The notes under the pieces were generated by a model. It saw only the letters and a program-made list of their open reading frames with translations. It did no database searches and was not told the origin of the DNA. DNA of 64,000 nt from a virus: the IMG/VR virus record IMGVR_UViG_3300037478_000520, positions 49,661-113,660 of that record. One strand, given 5' to 3'. Below are positions 1 through 64,000 of the stretch, in pieces. Every line of letters starts with the position of its first letter. Position 1 is the first letter of the stretch. A program made the position numbers and the translations under genes.

Positions 1-2107
1 GTAGCCGGATGCCGTCAACGTCGGCGAACAGGTCAGAGAACACGACCGCGTTGCCCGCCTCGTTGACGACAGGGTACTTGCCCGCTGCGCTCGTGTAGTT
101 CGCAGGCGTGTCTGTCAGCGCGATAAATGTGGTCGACCCACCTCCATCGTCGACCGCCGCCCAAGTGGAACCGTTGTAGACCTCGAGCTGCGCTGTCGTC
201 GTGTTCCAAACGATGTCGCCATCCTCGGCCGGCAGCGCGTTTCGCTCCGTCGTGTCCAGACGGCTAGCGAACGTGACGTGGAACTCCAGACCGGTTTCCG
301 CGTTGTTGATGCGCGGAACGGCGCGGGCGAACGCAGTGCCAGCGGACGTGTACGAAGATGGCGTGTCGGTCAGGCTAAGAAACGTGGTCGAACCAACCCC
401 GATCTGAAACCACGCAGACCCGTCGTAGGCGTCGATGGTATTGGTCGTCTCGTTGTAGACGACCAGACCCTCTCGCGGGCTGCTGATCGCGTCGCGCTCG
501 GCGGTCGTGACGGTCGGGAAACCGATCCCTAGGTTGACGCTCTGGAAGTCGATTGCCGCGCTAGCGTGTGGGGTCGTGCCACCGAGGGAGATTTGCGCGA
601 CGTTCCTGATGTCGAACGCGTTGAAATCGAGGTTCGCGTCAATCTCGGGCTGAATCGGCCGGATGATCAGCGCGTCGGAGCCAAGGCTGACCAGTGCATC
701 GGTGTTCACCGCAAACATGTTGTTCGCGTACTTCGAACCGCTGTTGACGAAGAACTGCCGTCCAGGCGGGAACTGGTAGTTAAATTGGAATCCAGGAGCT
801 CGCGACCAAGCACCCGAAGAAGCGGTGTAGACACCGTTCTCGCTCGGTGCGGATTGGTTGGCTACGAGCACCGGGTATCCCTCTGACAGGATCACACCGT
901 CGACATCCGCCAGCCCGCTCAGCCCATGGTCGGATACCGTCGCCGCCTGAACGAAGGCGAGCCTGTCCAGCTCGTTGAGCATAGGGACGATGGCAATTGC
1001 TGTAGCGCCAACCGTGATGGCCGTGTCATTGACGACGCTAAACAGCTTGTCACCGTAGGTAGCGCCCTCGTTGACGTAGATCATCAGGCCGCCGAAGATT
1101 CCGGCCCCAGTGTCATACGGAACCGTGCGCGTCCAAGCGCCCGCAGTGTCGACCGTGTAGATGCCGTTCTGGGAAGGGGTGGTCTGCGCCCAACACAGGA
1201 ACGTGTCACCGGTAACCAGGGTCACCGTATCGGAAACCGCTGGTCCCGTGAGAGGAGCATTACCGGTCGCTGCAGCACGCACGATTGCGTAGCCGGACGA
1301 AGTCGCGCTTGTCGACGTGATCGCCACCCAGCTCGACCCATCCCAGTATTCAAACTGGTTGGTCGTCTCGTTCCAGATGAGCAGTCCTGTCGCCGGAGAT
1401 CCGATTGCGTCTCGCTCGGCGGTCGTCAGCGACGGGATTAGAATTCCGCTATTGTTGACCTGGGAGAAGTCGATGATCGCGCTCGCGTCACCCGACGTTC
1501 CGGAGATGATCGACCCGCCATTCAGAATCAGGTCGCCGCCGTTTAGGTTCAGGTCGCCATCGATGAGCGGCTGCAGCGGCCCGATGTTGATCGACGTCGT
1601 GCCGATGAGTACGGCGTTGTCGTTGCGAACCGAGAAGAGCGTGTCGCCGAAGCTCGCGCCGGCTTTCACGTAGATCAACTGACCGGGGAAAATCTCCGGG
1701 TCGGCATCGTAGGCAGCCGCGCGCGTCCACGCTCCGCTTGTGTTGACCTCGTAGATGCCATTCTCAGTGCCAGCCGATTGCATCCACGCGAGCACAAGGT
1801 CGCCGTTGATCAGCGCCGTACCGTCGATCGTCCCGCCGCCCGTCAGTGCATGGTTGCCCGTGGTGGCCAGTCGCACAACCGCTGCGCCCCACCCGCTACC
1901 GCCGTCTCCGCCGCCCACTCCACCACCGCCGCCGCCACCAACCGCGCCCGACATGTCGACGACGTAGCGACGGTTCGGCGAGTCGGCGGAGCCAACCGCA
2001 CCGGGCGCAACGATGTTCAGGATCTTATAGGTCCCGTCGATCGTGAGTCCGTTGACCTGGATCTCGTCGATGCCGATGTGAATCCAGGACGGTGGTGTTC
2101 GTGGCAT
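1..2107 (-). CDS. Tail fibre protein, 3' end runs off the window
   Basis: Not in the ORF track (no stop in window). Manual translation from ATG 2107 gives MPRTPPSWIHIGIDEIQV..., a Gly-rich linker, three copies of the phage fibre module VRLATTGNHALTG..TIDG..L..GD.VL...Q....ENGIY.V...GAWTRA, and three TT(A)ERDAI...GL..WN.TT..YDGS.W modules. It lies downstream of the baseplate genes. Confidence 0.8.
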   Translation of the reverse strand, partial: MPRTPPSWIHIGIDEIQVNGLTIDGTYKILNIVAPGAVGSADSPNRRYVVDMSGAVGGGGGGGVGGGDGGSGWGAAVVRLATTGNHALTGGGTIDGTALINGDLVLAWMQSAGTENGIYEVNTSGAWTRAAAYDADPEIFPGQLIYVKAGASFGDTLFSVRNDNAVLIGTTSINIGPLQPLIDGDLNLNGGDLILNGGSIISGTSGDASAIIDFSQVNNSGILIPSLTTAERDAIGSPATGLLIWNETTNQFEYWDGSSWVAITSTSATSSGYAIVRAAATGNAPLTGPAVSDTVTLVTGDTFLCWAQTTPSQNGIYTVDTAGAWTRTVPYDTGAGIFGGLMIYVNEGATYGDKLFSVVNDTAITVGATAIAIVPMLNELDRLAFVQAATVSDHGLSGLADVDGVILSEGYPVLVANQSAPSENGVYTASSGAWSRAPGFQFNYQFPPGRQFFVNSGSKYANNMFAVNTDALVSLGSDALIIRPIQPEIDANLDFNAFDIRNVAQISLGGTTPHASAAIDFQSVNLGIGFPTVTTAERDAISSPREGLVVYNETTNTIDAYDGSAWFQIGVGSTTFLSLTDTPSSYTSAGTAFARAVPRINNAETGLEFHVTFASRLDTTERNALPAEDGDIVWNTTTAQLEVYNGSTWAAVDDGGGSTTFIALTDTPANYTSAAGKYPVVNEAGNAVVFSDLFADVDGIRL

Positions 2108-5086: not shown

Positions 5087-5488
5087 TCAATTGACCTCTC
5101 GGAGCAGCTCGACCGTCAGGTCAGGAAACTCGACCACAGCCTCAAACGGCCCATCTCGGTCGGTCAGACGAAGATGAATCTGGATGTGATTCGGGTCGTT
5201 GCTGTGCGTCGTCACCGTCACGGATGCATTGAGGACCCGCTCATCCTGCTCGGCCTGCTCAGTGCACTTGGCGTTGATGTAGGATCCCGTGACACCGCTC
5301 GCGCTGAGCTGCGCTTTCAGGTCAAACCCGCGAGCAGGCGACCTCGGCCAGTGCCCGCGCGCGTAGGTGAAACGTCGAGCGATGTCGATCGCCAGTGCGC
5401 GACGCCCCGAGCACGTCGAAATGGTCGCGCTGAAGTCAAGCCCCGGGCCGAAGCCGTCGAATGTGCTTCCAAGTCCAAGGTTTGCCAT
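5087..5488 (-). CDS. Baseplate wedge / sheath initiator (gp25/gpW-like)
   Basis: 133 aa with a QDERV...V.V motif, directly upstream of baseplate J. Confidence 0.65.
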   Translation of the reverse strand: MANLGLGSTFDGFGPGLDFSATISTCSGRRALAIDIARRFTYARGHWPRSPARGFDLKAQLSASGVTGSYINAKCTEQAEQDERVLNASVTVTTHSNDPNHIQIHLRLTDRDGPFEAVVEFPDLTVELLREVN

Positions 5489-5562
5489 GTTTTCCCAAAC
5501 GGTTCCGCTGAGTTAGGGGTATCCGGTTGTTCGCCGTTCGCTGACGACGTACGCTTTTCGCT

Positions 5563-6624
5563 ATGCGCACGACCATCTTCCTATTTGCGCTCGTCGCGGC
5601 ATGCGCCGCGGAGCAAGCCCCCACCACGCCCTCTGAGCCCGTCCAGCGCGACGCCGTGACGCTCGGTACCGGCGGTGGCGCGCGGGCAGTGCGGGGCGAC
5701 GTGGGGCTTTCTCTGGCCGCGTTTGGCGACGATGGCGCCGACGATCCGAGTGGCCAGGGTCCGAATGGCCCAGGCGGCGCGGTCGACCCTTCGGAGTCGA
5801 CTCCGGACCCTCCTGAGCAGCTGGCCGGCACGGACATGCCGGTTGCCGGAGGCGGGGCGCCGGAGCCGGTGGATTCGACAAGCGACGTTGCGAGCCCAAT
5901 CCCGAGCGGTGAGTTGGCCAACTTGCTGATCGTGTTTGATCGCTCCCAAAGCATGGGGGAGCGGTGGAGTGGTGAGCCGCGCTGGCAAGCGGCCGGCCTC
6001 GCCGTTGCCCGTGCCATGAGCGCGTTGCAGCCCGACCACCTCGGCGCCATCACGACAGGCGCTGTGCTTTTGCCAACGCCGGACCCGAACGCTACGCCGA
6101 CATGCGTCGAGCCCTCCGGGGTTACCTGCGTCTTCGTTCCAGGCGAACCGGCTGACGCGGACAACTGCATGGTAGCGCCCGGGGCGACCTCGCACATTGC
6201 ACTCACGTCGGGCTACGATTTCTTGGACGCGTTCACCGTTGGGCCAGATGGAGCGCCGTTCTACTTCCCGATTCAGAGCGGCTCCACGCCTCTGAGGGAG
6301 GGACTGCTAGAAGCTCAGCGCGCGCTCGGCGACGCGACTCTTGTGGGGCAAACCGCCGTGGTCGTGATCACAGACGGCGAACCGGACTGCGGATGGGACG
6401 CTAGCGTCGCCACCAGCGTGGTGGCCGAATGGCGCGAGCAAGGCATCATCACCTACGTGATTGGGCTGCCCGGCCCAGACGGGGCGTTCGCCGGTGGTGC
6501 TGGCGGGGCATCGGCACTGAATGCCATTGCCGTGGCGGGCGGAAGCGTGTCGATGATCACGCCGGGCAGCGCTCCGGGCATGCAAGCTAAGTTGCTGTCG
6601 ATCTTGCGTGGCGAGGCGCTGTGA
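5563..6624 (+). CDS. von Willebrand factor A domain lipoprotein (moron on the opposite strand to the tail operon)
   Basis: Lipobox LVAAC, Pro/Gly/Asp linker, MIDAS motif DRSQSM, TPL, VVITDGEP, TYVIG. Confidence 0.85.
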   Translation: MRTTIFLFALVAACAAEQAPTTPSEPVQRDAVTLGTGGGARAVRGDVGLSLAAFGDDGADDPSGQGPNGPGGAVDPSESTPDPPEQLAGTDMPVAGGGAPEPVDSTSDVASPIPSGELANLLIVFDRSQSMGERWSGEPRWQAAGLAVARAMSALQPDHLGAITTGAVLLPTPDPNATPTCVEPSGVTCVFVPGEPADADNCMVAPGATSHIALTSGYDFLDAFTVGPDGAPFYFPIQSGSTPLREGLLEAQRALGDATLVGQTAVVVITDGEPDCGWDASVATSVVAEWREQGIITYVIGLPGPDGAFAGGAGGASALNAIAVAGGSVSMITPGSAPGMQAKLLSILRGEAL

Positions 6625-6811
6625 AACCCTGCAAAGAGTCTGAAAAGCCAATCGGTCAAACCGCGATGGACTGTCCGCATTGCGGGGCTAACCCCGCATC
6701 CCATCCAGCACCGCGCACAGCATCGCAATCGCGACGATCAGCGTTGCGAGATCGATAGCGTCGATCATTGTTCTGGCCTGTCTGCCACCCCCGGATGTGG
6801 GCGACGTCTGA

Positions 6812-7003
6812 TTCGCGAGAGGTCCGGTGGCGCGAAAACCCCGGGGACCGCTCGCAAACTGGCTAAGAATGCGGGGATATTAGCGAAATCCGATGGTCGT
6901 CAGCCCAAAGCAGCTTCCGTGGTAAACGTCCTGTAGCGCGTAGCGACAGGCACTCGCAAACCGACTTGCAAGCGCGTGGGATCTTTGACAATCTAGCGGA
7001 CCT
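6812..7003 (+). promoter_or_regulatory. CRISPR leader of array 1
   Basis: 6812-6859 matches 43804-43851 (47/48) and 6966-6997 is identical to 43959-43990 (32 nt). The blocks lie at nearly the same distance from the first repeat of each array (192 vs 193 nt). Confidence 0.85.
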
Positions 7004-7627
7004 GTCGCACAAGGCCCTCGGCGCCTTTGAAGCCGAGACTCCTGTGCTCCGGGCGGGGCGACCATTGCGAGGCAGTGTCGCACAAGGCCCTCGGCGCCTT
7101 TGAAGCCGAGACTTGTGCTCGAGGGCGCGCAAGGCATCGGAAAGTCTACCGCGGTCGCACAAGGCCCTCGGCGCCTTTGAAGCCGAGACGTGGGGGCGAG
7201 CGCGGTGGCGCGCGCCGGACTCGGGTAGTCGCACAAGGCCCTCGGCGCCTTTGAAGCCGAGACCGGCTGCAGGACGTGCTGGATTGGCTTGCGAGCCGGG
7301 GGGTCGCACAAGGCCCTCGGCGCCTTTGAAGCCGAGACGTGATCAGCCGCGTAGACCGCCAGCAGCGTCCACGCGGTCGCACAAGGCCCTCGGCGCCTTT
7401 GAAGCCGAGACTCTTGTTCTTGCATCTCTCCAAGAATCGCCCTATGGGGGTCGCACAAGGCCCTCGGCGCCTTTGAAGCCGAGACCCCAATCCCAGGTCG
7501 GAGACGGAACTCGCGCAGTCGTCGCACAAGGCCCTCGGCGCCTTTGAAGCCGAGACCGTAGGTCTGTGAGCACGTGGTGCAAGCCGATGGAGTATCACAA
7601 GGCCCTCGGCGCCTTTGAAGCCGAGAA
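7004..7627 (+). CRISPR. CRISPR array 1 (orphan): 9 repeats, 8 spacers of 35-41 nt
   Basis: 36-nt repeat GTCGCACAAGGCCCTCGGCGCCTTTGAAGCCGAGAC at 7004, 7077, 7154, 7228, 7303, 7376, 7450, 7521. Degenerate terminal repeat GTATCACAAG...GAGAA at 7592. Stem CTCGGC/GCCGAG. Confidence 0.98.
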
Positions 7628-7651
7628 ATCAGATGAAGTGCGCCTAGTGCG

Positions 7652-9790
7652 CTAGATCAGCAACCCGGGAAGTCGAACGTAGACCGGATGAACGCTCAAG
7701 CTTAGCGCGATCGACCCGCCACTCGAGGCGATTGTCGACGTTCCTCCGACGACGTCGGTGAGAGTCGCCGTCCCGACCGCGGGGTGGTTGTAGGCGCTGG
7801 CGACGGTGGAGTCACGCTTCCACACCGCTAGCCTCACCACACCACCGTCGTTCACAAATTCGAAGACGTACTGGTTACTGTTTCCCGTGGCGATTCGTCG
7901 GACAAACCGAAAGCTACCAAGCTCTTGCGCGAGCACGCCGGCGGCCGTCATCGCTGGTCGACCGTTGATGAAGAAAACCTCCTGTCCGCTGGTGTTTGCT
8001 CGCAGATACCAGCTTCGGAAGCGCACGCCGCGTGACAGCCCAAACAGGAAGTCACGCACGTGATAGCTCGCCTGGAGCAGGTTTTGCGTAGCCCCGCCGT
8101 CAGTGCGCCACCCGTGCTCGGAGTTTAGGATCGTTCCGACGTCATGCCCGACAAGATCCCAATACGAGTCGTAGTGGGCTTCCTCGGGCGCCCGCCCTGC
8201 GGCCATGTTGTCCGTCGGGCTGAAAGACTCCGCCGTGTAGAAGTGGACGCTTACGCGATCGAGCAGTGCCACCACGCCGTTGTCGATTAGGCGCTGCAGG
8301 TACGCCTGTGCGACGGACAGGTTCACGCCTGTCCCGGCCAAACCCGGCCCGGTGATAAAGACGTTGGGGTCCGCAGCGCGCATCGCTGGAATCACCACAT
8401 GCGCAAGCGCCGAGTACTCGTCCGCCGCTGCGAGTGCCCCCTCCAGCGTGTTCACCATCGGCCAGAAGTTCGAGATGTTAGGCTCGTTCCCAAGCTCGAA
8501 CATCACCTTGGCGCCAGCCCAGTGCGCCGCCGCGGCAGCCGCGAAGTTCGCATAGGCCGTACGTCCTCCGGCGTCATATGGAGGAGCCGACCCGGCGCCG
8601 TAGATGGGCGTATTGTGCGTCATTTGCAAGTTCTGCAAAACGCCGATCCCAAGGGCGTTGAACTCGTCGACGATTCGATCGTAGTTGGGCGCCGTCGTCC
8701 AGTCGTAGACACCCTCCGACTCTTCGATGTCAGACCAGTAAAGGCGAGACCGGACCCACTTGAAGCCGTCCGCCGCGACGTCGGCCGCGTAGACGCTGAC
8801 GTCGCCAGGATTCACCCCAAGATTCAGCGACAGGCCATCCGTCGCGTAGTCAAGAACGCCAAGAGCGCCGCCGAGGTCATCAGCCTCAAGCGAACTACCC
8901 GGCGAATACGCGCCTATTTCCCACTGAGACATCAGCGCTTGCTCGGCTTGCGACTGGTTTGTCTCGTCGTGGGCTACCGAGTAGCACAGAAGACGCCCGA
9001 ACAGCTGCTCGACGTTTGTTCCTCCGAGATTGGCGCCAACGGCGACCATCCCGTAAACAGTATTGAAGGTTGGCGTGCCTGTGCCAACCAACGTTCCGTT
9101 TTTGTGCATCGTAAGGGTGCCCGAGGCTAGCTTGATGCACCACACGGCCCACTCTTCGTAGCTGTGCTCGTTCGCATTCACTTCGCCAGAGGTTGAGGTG
9201 AACCGAGCGAAGTCCGGAGTTCCTTGGCGCATTTCGACTACAAACGCGCCAGCTGTGCTGAGGCTACCGCTGACGAAGATCCAATTCGTCGCCGCGTTGT
9301 CCGCGACTTTTCCAACCCAGTACCATGTACGATCGGCAGCGCCCGTTGGCAGTCCTACCGGGCCTGTCTTCGCATTGCTCTCGCTTGACCCGTTGTAGGC
9401 AATGCAGTCGATGCCGCTTGGTGCACCCGCGGCAACGATCTGACCTCCGCTGTCGCCGCCCATCGGTGTCGCGTGGTTGTCGTTGCCGCTGGCGTCGTTC
9501 AGCGACGTGACTTCGGTGCCCGATAGCCCGTGATTCCCGGAGCTAGCGTCCCAATCAAGCACGAGATCGTCCGTCGGGACGAGCAATTCCACTTCGTTTT
9601 CTGGCTGTTGCTCTGGGACTTGTGGCGATGGGACAGGAATCTGTGGATCTTCAGGCTGAAGCAACCCGGCTTCATCGAACCAGCCAGCCCACATAGCGGC
9701 CCACGATTCGGCTGCTTCCTCTGTACTGCCAGGACGAGCCGCGAACAGAGCAAGCACGTCGTTCACGATCCTGGTGTTAGTTAGCGCCAT
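7652..9790 (-). CDS. Virion-associated LamG/ConA-like domain plus clan GH-A (GH5/GH39-like) glycoside hydrolase
   Basis: N-terminal D.SGNDNHAT...LamG-type beta domain. C-terminal WVRSRLYWSDIE...GVYDW, acid/base motif ELGNEPN, VSVHFY, nucleophile motif NSEHGW. Confidence 0.78.
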   Translation of the reverse strand: MALTNTRIVNDVLALFAARPGSTEEAAESWAAMWAGWFDEAGLLQPEDPQIPVPSPQVPEQQPENEVELLVPTDDLVLDWDASSGNHGLSGTEVTSLNDASGNDNHATPMGGDSGGQIVAAGAPSGIDCIAYNGSSESNAKTGPVGLPTGAADRTWYWVGKVADNAATNWIFVSGSLSTAGAFVVEMRQGTPDFARFTSTSGEVNANEHSYEEWAVWCIKLASGTLTMHKNGTLVGTGTPTFNTVYGMVAVGANLGGTNVEQLFGRLLCYSVAHDETNQSQAEQALMSQWEIGAYSPGSSLEADDLGGALGVLDYATDGLSLNLGVNPGDVSVYAADVAADGFKWVRSRLYWSDIEESEGVYDWTTAPNYDRIVDEFNALGIGVLQNLQMTHNTPIYGAGSAPPYDAGGRTAYANFAAAAAAHWAGAKVMFELGNEPNISNFWPMVNTLEGALAAADEYSALAHVVIPAMRAADPNVFITGPGLAGTGVNLSVAQAYLQRLIDNGVVALLDRVSVHFYTAESFSPTDNMAAGRAPEEAHYDSYWDLVGHDVGTILNSEHGWRTDGGATQNLLQASYHVRDFLFGLSRGVRFRSWYLRANTSGQEVFFINGRPAMTAAGVLAQELGSFRFVRRIATGNSNQYVFEFVNDGGVVRLAVWKRDSTVASAYNHPAVGTATLTDVVGGTSTIASSGGSIALSLSVHPVYVRLPGLLI

Positions 9791-20624: not shown

Positions 20625-21179
20625 TCAATCCTTGCCGGATTCGGCTTCGGCCTTTTCGATCTCTACGTAGAGGCGATCTGCGCCCCAACGCTTGTCGACC
20701 TTGACGCCCGCCTTCTCCGCCATCTCCCGGAGTTCGTCCAACTCGGACTTGTCCTCTGTGGACTCCTCCTCTGGAGGAACTTCGGGCACCAGCTCCGCCT
20801 TTGGCTCCGTTTCCAGCTTCGGCGGCGGTGAAGGCGGCTGCACGGTCGACTTCTCCGCCATCTCCCGGAGTTCGTCCAACTCGGACTTGTCCTCTGTGGA
20901 CTCCTCCTCTGGAGGAACTTCGGGCACCAGCTCCGCCTTTGGCTCCGTTTCCAGCTTCGGCGGCGGTGAAGGCGGCTGCACGGTCGACTTCTCGATGGAC
21001 GGCTTGGGCGGTTCAAGCGGCAAGCCTCCAGGTAGTTGCTTGCGCAACTCGAGAAGCCGCAACTCGTACCCGTGCGCCTGCTCCTGCATGAGGCGCCGGT
21101 GCTCGGACATGGGGATCGACGATGGCGTGGGAGGCGCATTTCCTACCCCCACGCCATGTCGGAATGAAACGCGACCCAT
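20625..21179 (-). CDS. Pro/Glu-rich protein downstream of the capsid gene
   Basis: C-terminal ELREMAEKAGVKVDKRWG..RL motif; contains an internal 46-aa duplication. Confidence 0.65.
   Translation of the reverse strand: MGRVSFRHGVGVGNAPPTPSSIPMSEHRRLMQEQAHGYELRLLELRKQLPGGLPLEPPKPSIEKSTVQPPSPPPKLETEPKAELVPEVPPEEESTEDKSELDELREMAEKSTVQPPSPPPKLETEPKAELVPEVPPEEESTEDKSELDELREMAEKAGVKVDKRWGADRLYVEIEKAEAESGKD
20712..20993. repeat. Perfect 138-bp tandem duplication
   Basis: Unit starting CTTCTCCGCCATCTCC at 20712 and 20850. Confidence 0.9.
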
Positions 21180-30547: not shown

Positions 30548-31075
30548 ATGACATCTTACACTGTAATCATAACGTGGGCGCTCGCCGCTAGCGCTGGGAC
30601 CGGACAGACAACCGTCTGCTTTGAGGCCGCATCGCCCGACCCTGCCAAGGCGGCCGTGGAAGCGTGGCGGACCCCCGTCACGCACAGCGGTTCCGCTGTA
30701 ATCGAGTGGATGCCCGAAACCGCTGTAATCGCGTCCGTGCGGGCCGTGGCTGACGGGTGCGGCAAACATGCCCGCCCGTCCATCGCCAAGCCGCCCGAGG
30801 CGACAATCCTCGAGATTCCCGCTGCGACCTATCCCGCCACCGTCCACTACCGCACGCCCGACGGATCGACGGCCCGATGCGACGCGACAATCCTGTGCTC
30901 CGGGCGGGGCGACCATTGCGAGGCCGTGATAGACCCTGGCGCCTGCACATCGCACTGGGGACTTGAGCAATGTCTCGCCAGCACCGTGGCCGTACCCGGC
31001 GACGATTCCGCCGATACCCTGGGGTGCGACCCGGGCGCCCGGCTGCTCGATATCGACTGGACGGACCCGCTGTAA
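30548..31075 (+). CDS. Hypothetical early protein containing the protospacer of array 1 spacer 1
   Basis: ATG 30548 after AAGGGA; 30891-30927 matches spacer 7040-7076 at 36/37. Confidence 0.65.
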   Translation: MTSYTVIITWALAASAGTGQTTVCFEAASPDPAKAAVEAWRTPVTHSGSAVIEWMPETAVIASVRAVADGCGKHARPSIAKPPEATILEIPAATYPATVHYRTPDGSTARCDATILCSGRGDHCEAVIDPGACTSHWGLEQCLASTVAVPGDDSADTLGCDPGARLLDIDWTDPL

Positions 31076-41409: not shown

Positions 41410-41717
41410 AAGGCCCTTGGTACATCACGCTGGCCGCCGTCGAGCACTGGATGCGCGTCCGCCGCTACCCCGACGACGACGCGCACTTTGAGCGCGCCGA
41501 GGACGAGCTTTTCGGGTTGATCCAAGGCGCCAAGCTTCGCCAGACTGACGCTGAAGGCCGGCAGCTGTGGCGCATAGGCCGACCGCACAAAGCCCGCATG
41601 ATCGTCGACACACGCAAGCTGGAACGCGTGGACGGACGCGACTTGCCGCGCCTGATCTGGGTTGGTCAGGGCCACCCGCCACACTGGTGCTGGACGAAAG
41701 AAGGAAACATTGACTAG
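41406..41717 (+). CDS. Hypothetical protein, possibly RelE/ParE-like fold
   Basis: GTGA-coupled; WYITLAAV...RQLWRIG...RMIV...LIWVG spacing is reminiscent of RelE folds (weak). Confidence 0.45.
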   Translation: MKGPWYITLAAVEHWMRVRRYPDDDAHFERAEDELFGLIQGAKLRQTDAEGRQLWRIGRPHKARMIVDTRKLERVDGRDLPRLIWVGQGHPPHWCWTKEGNID

Positions 41718-41828
41718 AGCGCCGATCAGAGAAGGGGAGATCGCCACAGTCACCAAACGACTGCGCGTCACACCCGAGCAAGCCGAGGAGCTGGAGCGGG
41801 CTCCAGCGCAAAAGAAGGAAACTTGAAA

Positions 41829-43928
41829 ATGCAAACCATCGCCTACAAATACCGGATCCTTCGCGTGCTCTCCGACGAGCGGGCTATCATGGACGAGATC
41901 CGAGCCGGTCACCGGCTCTACAACGATCTAGTCGCCATCGAGCGCAAGCGACGGGCCGCGACCGAGGCGTTCTGGGCTGAGCGTGGTGGGTACCAGGATC
42001 TTCTGGCCGAGCGTGGGAAGGCCATCGAATTCGCCGAGTCGATTCCCAAGGGCGATGATCGGCGCGAGGAGAAGCGCGCGGCATGGCGCGCTGTGAACGA
42101 TCTGCGTAAGCAGATCTGGGAGTGCGAGAAGGACGCCATCAAAGCGTTCCACGCGAGCGATCCCGTGAAGATCCGCAGGATGGAACGCGCCAAGGAACTC
42201 CGTGCTGCTGCGAAGGCGCGCAAGGAAAAGCTAACGGCGAAAAAGATCGCGGACATTCTTGACGAGGAACCAGATTGCCTGACCGAGCGGGATAAGCTGC
42301 GCAAAACGCTTATCCAGAGCTACAAGGATCGCGGCGTCGGGATCAGTGCGAAAACCGTGGCTGGCAAGCTCGCAGAGGCATTCCCTGGTCCGACGGAACA
42401 CGTCGAGCAGGAGGCGAAAGCCGCGGCGTACACAGCCTATCGCGAACGCGGTGTTACGCCCGGTACGCGCGCGGTGGTTGCGGACGCGCATGAGCGCTCG
42501 CTTGAGATGCTCGAGTGGCGAGAGCAACGCTTCAAGCCGTGGTCCGGCCACGGCGCATTCGGAACGCAAATCCAAGGAGGCGCGACGTACGGCGACCTAT
42601 GCAGTGGCAGCCACACGTTTGCTCAACTGGAGTGCCTCGACCGCGGCAACTACACTCCTGGATCTCGCCGGCATGGCAGTCTGCACAGGCTACGCGTGCG
42701 CCTTGGGTCGGACGGTCAGAAGCCCGTCTGGGCGGAATTCGAAGCGAGCCTACTTCGCAGCGGCCCGCGTACGTCCGCGTCGACATCGGATCCGATCCCA
42801 CCCGATGCGCGCGTAATGCAAGTGCGCGTGGTGGTCGACCGAATCGGCGTGCACGACCACTGGTACGTCTGTTTCACGGCTCAGGTTCCGGACGCCGTGC
42901 ACTTGCGGGATGAGCCGCCGACGAAGGGCGGGACGGTGGCCATCGACATTGGGTGGCGCAGTTTGGACGGTGGTTTGCGGGTCGGATACTTCCACGACGG
43001 GCAAGAGCACGGCCCCATCGACCTGCCAACGATCCGCAAGCGACTCAAGCCGCACGGGAAGCGAGGCGCCAAGGCGAAGTGGTTCGAAGTGCGCGACGTG
43101 TTCGATCACGCGAGTCACATCCAAGGGATCCTGTCTCAGGAATTCTACTCCGAGGACAAGGATGCGGCCGTGTACGGCGGCGCCTTGCATGACCTAGCGG
43201 TCTGGATCGACTCGCGCGGGCGCGATGCTCTCCCCGAGTGGCTCTCCGAATCTACCGCCGGGATCCGACAGTGGCGTTCGCAAGCTCGGCTCAACGGACT
43301 AGTTGAACGATGGCTTCACAACCGTTTCGAGGGCGACGGTCAAATCGTCGCTCGCATGGATCAGTGGCGCAAAGACTATAGGCATTTGCATGAATGGTGC
43401 GCGCGGGAGAGAAACCGCGCCCTGAACGCGCGCGACGAGCACTACAGGCAGACCGCGCTACGCCTCGCGCGCGCGTACGAAACGATCGTGATCAACGGCG
43501 CCGACCTTGCAACCACGCGCCGCCGCAAACGGAAAGAGAAGGCCGCCCCCGAGCTGGTCATGGTCGAGGATGCGAAGCGTTCGCAGGCCTTCGACGCCGC
43601 GCCGGGGAAGCTCCGGGAAGAGATCGTAAAGGCGGCAAAGAAGTACGGCCGGACACTGGTCAAATTGCCGTTCGAAACCGAGAGGTGTCACGTTTGCGGG
43701 GAGGTGTGTGAATTTGACCGTGCCCGCTATCTCTCACACAAGTGCGAGCACGAGCCATGCACAGCACAGTGGGACCAGGACGCCAACGCGTGCCTGAATG
43801 CCCTTCGCGAGTGGTCCGGTGGCGCGAAAACCCCGGGGACCGCTCGCAAACGCGACAAGCCCGCGAAGTCACGTGAGAAAACGACGGGGCGCGGCGACGC
43901 AATAGGCGCTGTGAGCGATTCGCTGTAG
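41829..43928 (+). CDS. cas12m: Compact type V CRISPR effector, V-U1/Cas12m-like (TnpB-derived RuvC protein), 699 aa
   Basis: ATG 41829 after AAGGA. Motifs YKY, GHRLYNDLVAIER, RF..W.G.G..G.QIQGG, R.R.GS...P.W, RIG....WYV.FT, RuvC-I VAIDIGWR...GLRV, QWRS.ARL, RuvC-II IVINGADL, AAPG.LR, Zn finger CHVC/CEHEPC, RuvC-III WDQDANA..N. A CRISPR array follows immediately. Confidence 0.85.
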   Translation: MQTIAYKYRILRVLSDERAIMDEIRAGHRLYNDLVAIERKRRAATEAFWAERGGYQDLLAERGKAIEFAESIPKGDDRREEKRAAWRAVNDLRKQIWECEKDAIKAFHASDPVKIRRMERAKELRAAAKARKEKLTAKKIADILDEEPDCLTERDKLRKTLIQSYKDRGVGISAKTVAGKLAEAFPGPTEHVEQEAKAAAYTAYRERGVTPGTRAVVADAHERSLEMLEWREQRFKPWSGHGAFGTQIQGGATYGDLCSGSHTFAQLECLDRGNYTPGSRRHGSLHRLRVRLGSDGQKPVWAEFEASLLRSGPRTSASTSDPIPPDARVMQVRVVVDRIGVHDHWYVCFTAQVPDAVHLRDEPPTKGGTVAIDIGWRSLDGGLRVGYFHDGQEHGPIDLPTIRKRLKPHGKRGAKAKWFEVRDVFDHASHIQGILSQEFYSEDKDAAVYGGALHDLAVWIDSRGRDALPEWLSESTAGIRQWRSQARLNGLVERWLHNRFEGDGQIVARMDQWRKDYRHLHEWCARERNRALNARDEHYRQTALRLARAYETIVINGADLATTRRRKRKEKAAPELVMVEDAKRSQAFDAAPGKLREEIVKAAKKYGRTLVKLPFETERCHVCGEVCEFDRARYLSHKCEHEPCTAQWDQDANACLNALREWSGGAKTPGTARKRDKPAKSREKTTGRGDAIGAVSDSL

Positions 43929-43996
43929 ACCTGGGATCAGGAGCGCTCGCAAAACGGTTTGCAAGCGCGTGGGATCTTTGACAATCTAGCCGAGCT
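43804..43996 (+). promoter_or_regulatory. CRISPR leader of array 2 (5' part overlaps the last ~41 codons of the effector)
   Basis: Same motifs and spacing as the leader of array 1. Confidence 0.85.
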
Positions 43997-44915
43997 GTAT
44001 CAGAAGGCCCTCGGCGCCTTTGAAGCCGAGACCAGATGGCGTTGTGCATCTGGTTGTCGAGCCGCCGGGTATCAGAAGGCCCTCGGCGCCTTTGAAGCCG
44101 AGACCGCGACTGGCTTCATTCGGTTACTTTTTTCGATACTCGTATCAGAAGGCCCTCGGCGCCTTTGAAGCCGAGACACGCCCATGTCCGAGCCGCAGCG
44201 AAGCGCGTCGCCTCGTATCAGAAGGCCCTCGGCGCCTTTGAAGCCGAGACAGGGGGACCGCTCACCCGCAAGAGCGCTTTCAGCCGGCGGTATCACAAGG
44301 CCCTCGGCGCCTTTGAAGCCGAGACCCGCACGTCCGGATCGGCGAGCACCGGCGGTACGTGAGTATCAGAAGGCCCTCGGCGCCTTTGAAGCCGAGACTC
44401 TTGTTCTTGCATCTCTCCAAGAATCGCCCTATGGGGGTCGCACAAGGCCCTCGGCGCCTTTGAAGCCGAGACGCGCGCTGGAATGGTGGCGCTGCGCATC
44501 GGCGCGATCGTCGCACAAGGCCCTCGGCGCCTTTGAAGCCGAGACTAACACCCGGGCGCTGTTACCAAACACCCCAAGGCAGGGGTCGCACAAGGCCCTC
44601 GGCGCCTTTGAAGCCGAGACCGCGCGGCGCCGAAGCCGAAGGCGAAGCCACTCGCGCGCGTGTCGCACAAGGCCCTCGGCGCCTTTGAAGCCGAGACACG
44701 GGAGTCATCTTCGTGACCGGAACGAATACCCAGTCGCACAAGGCCCTCGGCGCCTTTGAAGCCGAGACTGTTTGGCGACGGCGCGAACTCCAAGTCGACC
44801 ATCCTCGGTATCAGAAGGCCCTCGGCGCCTTTGAAGCCGAGACACTGATCACGACCTACGCGAGGTGGTCGCCGACGTGGTATCACAAGGCCCTCGGCGC
44901 CTTTGAAGCTGAGAT
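43997..44915 (+). CRISPR. CRISPR array 2: 13 repeats, 12 spacers of 35-41 nt
   Basis: Repeats GT(AT/CG)CA(G/C)AAGGCCCTCGGCGCCTTTGAAGCCGAGAC at 43997, 44069, 44142, 44215, 44290, 44363, 44437, 44510, 44585, 44662, 44733, 44808. Degenerate terminal repeat at 44880 (...GCTGAGAT). Confidence 0.98.
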
Positions 44916-63630: not shown

Positions 63631-64000
63631 AACTTCTCCATGGCCCAGCCGAGCACGCCAGGCGCGACGGGCACGACGATCCCGAGCCCGTGTTCGTAGG
63701 CGTCGCGAATGCCCACCGTGTACTGCTCGGCAGGTGCGTCGACCCATCCTTTGAGCGCCGCGTAGCGGTGCACTAAGGCGTCCCAGGCGTTCCTGGCGTT
63801 CCAGGCGTTCCTGGCGTTCAAGGCGGCCCAGGCGTCCCAGGCGTCCCTGGCGTTCAAGGCGGCCCAGGCGTCCCTGGCGTCCCAGGCGTCCCAGACGTAC
63901 CAGGCGGCCCTTGGGGTGCAGTCGGACGACGGGTACTCTTGCAGCTCCCAGTCAATCAATCCTCGTGCGTCCAGCGCGGCGCGCAACCCGGCGATCACAG
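63627..64000 (-). CDS. Hypothetical protein with AW(D/N)/AR(D/N) tripeptide repeats, 5' end outside the window
   Basis: 9-nt repeats (CCAGGCGTC-like) at about 63775-63910; ATGA-coupled to the DUF5131 gene. Confidence 0.6.
   Translation of the reverse strand, partial: VIAGLRAALDARGLIDWELQEYPSSDCTPRAAWYVWDAWDARDAWAALNARDAWDAWAALNARNAWNARNAWDALVHRYAALKGWVDAPAEQYTVGIRDAYEHGLGIVVPVAPGVLGWAMEKL

Follow-up and report, generated by a model that had tools for sequence, protein, structure and literature searches.

In bacterial type I-E and I-F systems, several arrays or orphan arrays work in trans with one cas operon. The locus described here raises the question of whether a phage is organised in a similar manner: what does a CRISPR array serve that lies among tail genes, with no cas gene beside it? 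Coordinates are those of the window, the whole stretch of 64,000 nt that was analysed, which corresponds to bases 49661–113660 of a linear IMG/VR record of 113,660 bp; positions in the full record are marked as such. A first-pass annotation had placed at 6812–7627 a second, orphan array for an effector encoded about 34 kb away, and had proposed that it works in trans as a satellite guide cassette. On the sequence evidence assembled below, we consider it likely that this is an intact type V-M array, one of three dispersed arrays that would feed a single effector 34 kb away.

An orphan array in the tail gene block

The array and its immediate surroundings comprise the following features.

5563–6624, plus strand: ORF with a lipoprotein-type N-terminus and weak vWA matches
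6688–6768, minus strand: hydrophobic ORF of 26 aa that separates the vWA gene from the leader of the array
6812–7003, plus strand: leader of array 1, 192 nt, with block A at 6812–6859 and block B at 6950–7003
7004–7627, plus strand: orphan CRISPR array 1, with nine repeats of 36 nt and eight spacers of 35–41 nt
7652–9790, minus strand: gene for a tail protein of 712 aa that contains a GH5 domain; 24 nt lie between its stop codon and the last repeat

Array 1 shows the hallmarks by which CRISPR arrays are recognised, namely near-identical repeats within the range of 23–50 nt, regular spacing and unique spacers of like length. The repeats follow one another at 71–77 nt from start to start; eight of the nine are identical, and the terminal one is degenerate, with three positions changed. 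The 31-nt repeat core finds 22 matches in the window and 0 in 100 shuffles. The two ends of the array are also those of a leader-bearing array, with a conserved leader on one side, common to arrays 2 and 3 and to the strain variants described below, and the degenerate repeat at the far end. The range 6812–7627 spans leader and array together, whereas the array proper begins only at 7004.

As is typical of an orphan array, a cas gene is nowhere near array 1, and the repeat handle is identical to that of the cas-linked array 2. The annotation had attributed to it the repeat core and leader blocks of array 2, which is borne out by the identical handle and by the matches of blocks A and B. The lack of an adjacent cas gene and the distance to the effector hold as well, the only cas12m gene of the record being 34.2 kb away. 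Comparison of the spacers confirmed that seven of the eight are absent from array 2, the single common spacer being 7412–7449, which equals 44399–44436; as had been suggested, array 1 would therefore widen the guide repertoire, by seven guides that array 2 is missing. Its spacers have a G+C content of 67%, and their lengths fall in the range of those of array 2. To call it the second array was correct in that the array is real, but the record holds a third one, outside the window, which had been overlooked.

On the minus strand, the gene order runs from sheath, tube and tape measure through two ORFs and the 712-aa GH5-domain protein to array 1. Beyond the array lie the 26-aa hydrophobic ORF, the plus-strand ORF 5563–6624, and the genes for gp25-like, Baseplate J, P2 gpI and tail fibre proteins. 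This order confirms that array 1 occupies the plus strand among minus-strand tail and baseplate genes and that it points opposite to them, against the late tail operon. Less remained of the proposal that the array adjoins a plus-strand vWA gene and forms an island with it. The plus-strand ORF is present, but its Pfam matches to vWA are under the curated cut-offs and a small ORF intervenes. In a relative with 50% identity in Baseplate J, the site holds the small ORF and an unrelated opposite-strand ORF, with no array. The tail module of the distant relative L020 has a counterpart of ORF 6688–6768 in the corresponding position (6416–6486). Since this small ORF intervenes and recurs in a distant relative, the vWA gene and array 1 are not one island: the opposite-strand gene slot and the array are two separate features, and the link to vWA is incidental.

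The opposite-strand gene itself varies. Compared with the ORF at 709–1548 (minus strand) of the strain contig L008, the first ~56 residues of ORF 5563–6624 are nearly identical and the remainder is unrelated; its C-terminal part looks like a swappable cargo domain. Tandem repeats also occur farther along the window: Tandem Repeats Finder reported a perfect tandem duplication at 20712–20993 (138-nt unit, 2.0 copies, 100% match), and a 9-nt unit is repeated 15 times at 63776–63910 with 80% match.

A single Cas12m effector gene

41823–43928, plus strand: cas12m, 701 aa (699 aa from the ATG at 41829), with the RuvC triad D-N-D; the sole effector gene

Searched alone, the effector matched the solved Cas12m structure 23vw with E = 2.4e-36. 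A profile of nine sequences, built from ORF 41823–43928 and eight homologues, matched five Cas12m structures with E values of 2.5e-89 to 2.4e-30, TnpB and Cas12f following only from 1e-11. The homology to Cas12m extends over the WED, RuvC and TNB regions, which places the system in type V-M. Alignment assigned the RuvC positions to D375, an N in the second motif and D653. The resulting D-N-D triad belongs to the types described for the Cas12m family (HEK/HQK, HDD, DED/NED, DND) and is quoted among the triads of Cas12m clade 4 (Omura et al., PMC10442227). Cas12m orthologues with D-E-D, H-D-D and N-D-D triads show PAM-dependent DNA binding and no cutting, and these orthologues use a single crRNA of 50–60 nt with no need for a tracrRNA (Bigelyte et al., PMC11013384). 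From the D-N-D triad and these other orthologues, we infer that the phage effector is likewise non-cutting.

The 113,660-bp record contains one full cas12m gene, and no Cas1, Cas2 or Cas4 was found in it. As the record is 82% complete according to CheckV, adaptation genes or a second effector could sit in the missing part.

Metagenome contigs of up to 79.9 kb encode the homologues closest to the effector, with 43–58% identity. The effector did not lead to an identification of the host, its nearest genomic relatives being only 23–26% identical. In a protein atlas, the clusters nearest to it are 80–91% viral, and IMG/VR contains at least 15 viral loci with Cas12m-like genes of 25–31% identity, most of them with an array directly downstream. 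Four viral Cas12m records, three of them complete genomes, were scanned whole with their own repeat, and no second multi-spacer array was found; one has a solo repeat 19 kb away and in another, three degenerate repeats lie at the contig's far end.

A Planctomycetota MAG contig, JANQEJ010000327.1 (L010 9500–9800 and 11500–12240), carries a Cas12m-like ORF of ~506 aa with many repeat-like units on both sides. The units are 28–30 nt long, and their last 23 nt on the 3' side agree with the repeat handle of the phage at 22 of 23 positions. Irregular and very short gaps (5–40 nt) rule out that they form a regular CRISPR array.

Three arrays and their repeats

Besides arrays 1 and 2, a fuzzy repeat scan of the whole record revealed a third array and a solo repeat.

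43997–44915, plus strand: array 2, with 13 repeats and 12 spacers, beside cas12m
Record 42008–42560 (L003 2008–2560), outside the window, minus strand: array 3, with eight repeats and seven spacers
Record 41521–41556 (L003 1521–1556), outside the window, plus strand: solo repeat-like unit, with four mismatches to the array 1 repeat

The three arrays together hold 27 spacers. The repeats of array 2 differ from those of array 1 by 2–3 bases, all in the first 7 nt, and form a mosaic in which three variants of the 5' end are mixed along the array. In those of array 3, a G in one arm of the stem has become A and, in compensation, its partner C in the other arm has become T, so that pairing is preserved. 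A clear terminator, a stem plus a T-run, follows array 3. The first spacer of array 3 also occurs in array 1, as well as in two of the strain variants of array 2.

The three repeat variants differ solely within the first 7 nt, and all are predicted to form a 6-bp stem that closes a 9-nt loop, with two unpaired bases before the spacer. As read from the sequence, five bases 5' of the stem have their complement in the first five bases of the loop. The predicted stem and the loop complementarity fit the stem-plus-pseudoknot handle of Cas12m crRNAs. In the Cas12m2 structure, crRNA nucleotides −36 to −30 were not modelled (PMC10442227). Because the differences between the arrays fall within these first seven repeat bases, the repeats offer no argument against one effector for all three arrays. 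A scan allowing up to nine mismatches found no anti-repeat outside the arrays.

The solo repeat is ~450 nt from array 3, on the opposite strand, and is conserved in the strain contig L005. A built-in self-regulating guide was considered and dropped: neither the 30 nt after the solo repeat nor the sequence after the terminal repeats has a meaningful match elsewhere in the phage. Read in the crRNA sense, spacer 4 of array 3 (record 42262–42299) encodes 12 residues with the pattern G-x-S-x-G, like a patatin nucleophile elbow; the spacer is present with one change in the strain contig L006.

Leaders and the spread of the arrays

43806–43996, plus strand: leader of array 2, overlapping the last 41 codons of cas12m

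The leaders of arrays 1 and 2 agree in two blocks that are separated by ~90 nt of unrelated sequence. Block A (6812–6859) matches 43806–43853 at 47 of 48 positions, and the latter segment is the coding sequence for the C-terminal tail of Cas12m; block B (6950–7003) matches 43943–43996. In the array 1 leader, the cas12m copy remains in frame up to a TAG at 6934–6936, as far from block A as the genuine cas12m stop codon, and this 37-residue remnant is the only other match to the Cas12m protein in the record. The protein motif encoded by block A is conserved in Cas12m homologues of 40–58% identity. In an alignment of eight leaders, of which the record supplied three and metagenome contigs five, the homology begins abruptly at the position of 6812 throughout. 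The whole 190-nt leader is common to arrays 1 and 3, and array 2 has only blocks A and B in common with them. Since the orphan leaders open with a copy of the last ~40 cas12m codons, we conclude that the orphan arrays arose from a copied segment comprising the 3' end of cas12m, the leader and the array.

Block B is recognisable 5' of arrays at viral Cas12m loci whose proteins are only 27–31% identical, and in shorter Cas12m homologues it starts at the last codons of the gene. It is placed just 5' of the first repeat in all three arrays and at the distant viral Cas12m loci too. We conclude from this conservation that block B is the working leader of this family, with a putative role as promoter or integration signal. 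The idea that array 1 is expressed at a different time from the array beside cas12m finds no support, as the same block B stands upstream of the first repeat in all three arrays. A consensus scan of 5400–7900 returned no sigma-70-type promoter, the leader folded no better than shuffled sequence (z near +0.6), and Rfam searches with the array, the leader and the entire window yielded nothing.

Spacer content varies between strains

Five contigs of the metagenome Ga0326597 carry the same repeat, and their flanks assign them to the three array sites. Contig L008 represents the array 1 site: its downstream flank is identical at 95 of 95 nt and its upstream flank at 305 of 315, so that an independent metagenome contig reproduces both junctions of array 1. 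Its array has four repeats and three spacers, none of them in common with array 1 of the record. At the array 2 site, contig L007 and the record have seven far-end spacers in common, and the five nearest to the leader differ in each; contig L006, at the array 3 site, likewise has far-end spacers in common with the record and differs in those at the leader end. These comparisons show natural change in the arrays, the orphan one among them; at two of the sites it affects mainly the leader end. Array 1 is intact and its guides differ between strains, and it thus has the appearance of a functional component of a gene-silencing system of the phage.

Some spacers recur across different arrays. Together with the mosaic repeat variants of array 2, this recurrence suggests that the arrays exchange material. 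Three spacers, each drawn from a different array, overlap so as to cover a single target of ~80 nt, which in translation resembles the DNA-binding wing of excisionase-type proteins, and other spacers cover a ribosome-binding site and start codon.

A self-match and the search for targets

7040–7076, plus strand: leader-proximal (newest) spacer of array 1, matching the phage's own DNA at 36 of 37 positions
30891–30927, plus strand: self protospacer inside the small ORF 30548–31075, with a 5' flank ending in CAA

The only mismatch of this self-match is at position 35. ORF 30548–31075 has no Pfam or PHROG match, and the phage outside its arrays has no match to any of the remaining 51 distinct spacers. 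Target flanks could be rebuilt from overlapping spacers, giving two firm cases, which end in CTG and TCG, and a third, weaker one, which ends in TTC. Pyrimidine-rich PAMs are the rule for Cas12m (PMC11013384). As the CAA flank departs from this rule, the phage's own copy of the protospacer may lack a PAM, a reading that draws on few cases, the two firm flanks and the weak one.

Searches for other targets gave little. The spacers of arrays 1, 2 and 3 had no match in a phage collection, three spacer patterns had none in IMG/VR, and the array 1 spacers compared with plasmids gave one match at chance level (E = 0.05). Weak GC-rich matches of array 1 turned up in 400 Planctomycetota and 400 Myxococcota genomes; those inspected lay in unrelated genes and were set aside as chance. 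The G+C content of the spacers, 64–68% compared with 61.8% for the phage, hints at targets other than close kin. A strand bias of the spacers (14 sense and 4 antisense among spacers with high third-position GC) was not relied on, because the test mis-assigned the one spacer of known target.

Discussion

The reading of array 1 as a guide array that would act in trans is well supported by the sequence and by the variation between strains. What stands of the satellite cassette proposed in the first-pass annotation is the identical handle, the single effector gene, the seven extra guides and the antisense orientation to the tail genes, all of which would suit such a role; the separate timing finds no support, and the vWA gene does not belong to the same insertion. 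Besides the third array, the annotation had overlooked the derivation of the leader from the end of cas12m, the self-matching spacer and the strain differences.

Array 1 might instead be a silent, decaying duplicate of the cas12m-linked array with no present function. The missing cas neighbour, the dead remnant of the Cas12m C-terminus in the leader and the lack of a consensus promoter would suit such a relic; however, decay is confined to the terminal repeat, where it is usual, while the other eight repeats are identical, and block B is kept as it is across the family. The strain variant with wholly different spacers at the same site also fits an array that is still changing, and we regard a silent duplicate as unlikely. 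It is extremely improbable that misassembly created the site from a copy of array 2 that was collapsed or misplaced: repeats do invite such errors, but most spacers of array 1 are its own, both flanks are unique sequence, and the junctions recur in the independent contig at the identities given above.

The orphan arrays could also serve a host-encoded effector, or act as decoys for host Cas proteins in the manner of RNA anti-CRISPRs. The host reading draws on the Planctomycetota MAG, where the units flanking a Cas12m-like gene resemble the phage repeat so closely, on the solo repeat in the phage, and on the view that cas-less phages borrow host Cas proteins (PMC7162821). Yet this phage has its own effector beside an array with the same handle, whereas RNA anti-CRISPRs are recognised as repeat units that imitate a host system with no cognate effector in the element, and its full-length, diverse and strain-variable spacers are unlike solitary decoy repeats, which makes service to the host or a decoy role quite improbable. 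No more probable is an array that acts mainly on the phage itself, its newest guide binding the gene at 30891–30927 and tuning its expression. The single mismatch does lie beyond the 17–18 bp that Cas12m reads (PMC11013384, PMC10442227), and a non-cutting effector would make self-targeting survivable. The spacer is nevertheless missing from the array of strain L008, the CAA flank contrasts with the pyrimidine-pyrimidine-N of the tiled-spacer flanks, and the self-match stands alone among all the distinct spacers. We therefore return to array 1 as a guide array that probably supplies the phage's own Cas12m.

Such a system might operate as follows. A segment containing the 3' end of cas12m, the leader and the array was copied to a new site, as the leader of array 1 displays. 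Array 1 would be transcribed from its own leader, and Cas12m would cut the transcript into crRNAs of ~50–60 nt, each consisting of the spacer preceded by the 3' portion of the repeat with its stem and pseudoknot. By analogy with characterised Cas12m proteins, the complexes would bind double-stranded DNA beside a PAM and block transcription or replication without cutting. The targets may be other mobile elements or host genes, and the one self-match might be tolerated because the effector would be non-cutting and the flank does not resemble a PAM. Between strains, all three arrays vary in their spacers, as described above; new spacers could come from host adaptation enzymes acting in trans, and the arrays may also swap segments by recombination.

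The bacterial type V-M systems (MmCas12m2, GoCas12m and MsCas12m; PMC11013384, PMC10442227) employ an effector of the same family by profile. They resemble the present system in the 36-nt repeat with a 3' stem, the absence of adaptation genes, the absence of a detectable anti-repeat and the non-canonical RuvC triad. The present system differs in being phage-encoded, in a protein ~100 aa longer, and in having three dispersed arrays, only one of them beside a cas gene. Among phages, the closest likeness is MvCas12m of myxophage MV-1, a phage-encoded Cas12m with an adjacent array, reported as the first phage Cas12m (bioRxiv 10.64898/2026.09.14.751636). Its single array has eight spacers, for which targets were not found, and cas1, cas2 and cas4 are absent (bioRxiv 10.64898/2026.09.14.751636). 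Compared by description, MV-1 differs from our phage in its one array, its D-E-D triad and its 610-aa protein, and neither orphan arrays nor strain-level spacer differences were reported for it (bioRxiv 10.64898/2026.09.14.751636).

The huge phages described in 2020 encode type V-U variants and Cas-phi, with compact arrays and no acquisition genes; their spacers are aimed at other phages or at host genes, and their effectors without catalytic residues were proposed as repressors (PMC7162821). Compact arrays and the absence of acquisition genes are likenesses to our phage. The differences are that here arrays lying tens of kilobases from one another are seeded by a leader that was copied along with the 3' end of cas12m, that the arrays lie inside structural gene blocks, and that the genome is ~114 kb or more. 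Given these phages, the MV-1 preprint and the viral Cas12m loci of IMG/VR, phage Cas12m systems are not new. What is new here, as far as the sequences indicate, is the combination of three dispersed, still-changing arrays of a phage Cas12m and of orphan leaders derived from a copied gene end; so far, the dispersed orphan arrays are special to the present lineage.

Bacterial multi-array systems share with this phage the single effector set, the same type of repeat and leader, and the independent spacer content of the arrays. The phage system differs in its viral carrier, in an effector predicted to be a binder and not a nuclease, and in adaptation genes that are either absent or in the unrecovered part of the genome. 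A bolder extension of this comparison, to which we give only a small chance, is a natural multi-array interference system whose guide cassettes were seeded into different transcription units, so that the guide supply shifts during infection and new guides enter without adaptation genes of the phage's own. Array 1 is antisense within the late tail operon, array 3 has its own terminator and occupies a different block of minus-strand ORFs, and array 2 goes with the effector, so that the available guides could change during infection. If this were true, late transcription through array 1 could switch its guides off, and the entry of guides without phage adaptation genes would imply capture of host enzymes through the conserved leader, or an acquisition route not yet known.

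Cas12m is a natural counterpart of the engineered dead-Cas silencing tools, and a phage with Cas12m, 27 guides and three arrays would be a clear case of viral programmable silencing in place of cutting. The strain differences show that the arrays are still changing with no adaptation gene in the recovered genome, which makes the gain of spacers by a cas-less route testable. The copied cas12m end in the orphan leaders shows a route by which such arrays spread within a genome, and the block B motif, present at distant viral Cas12m loci, provides a handle for finding more such arrays.
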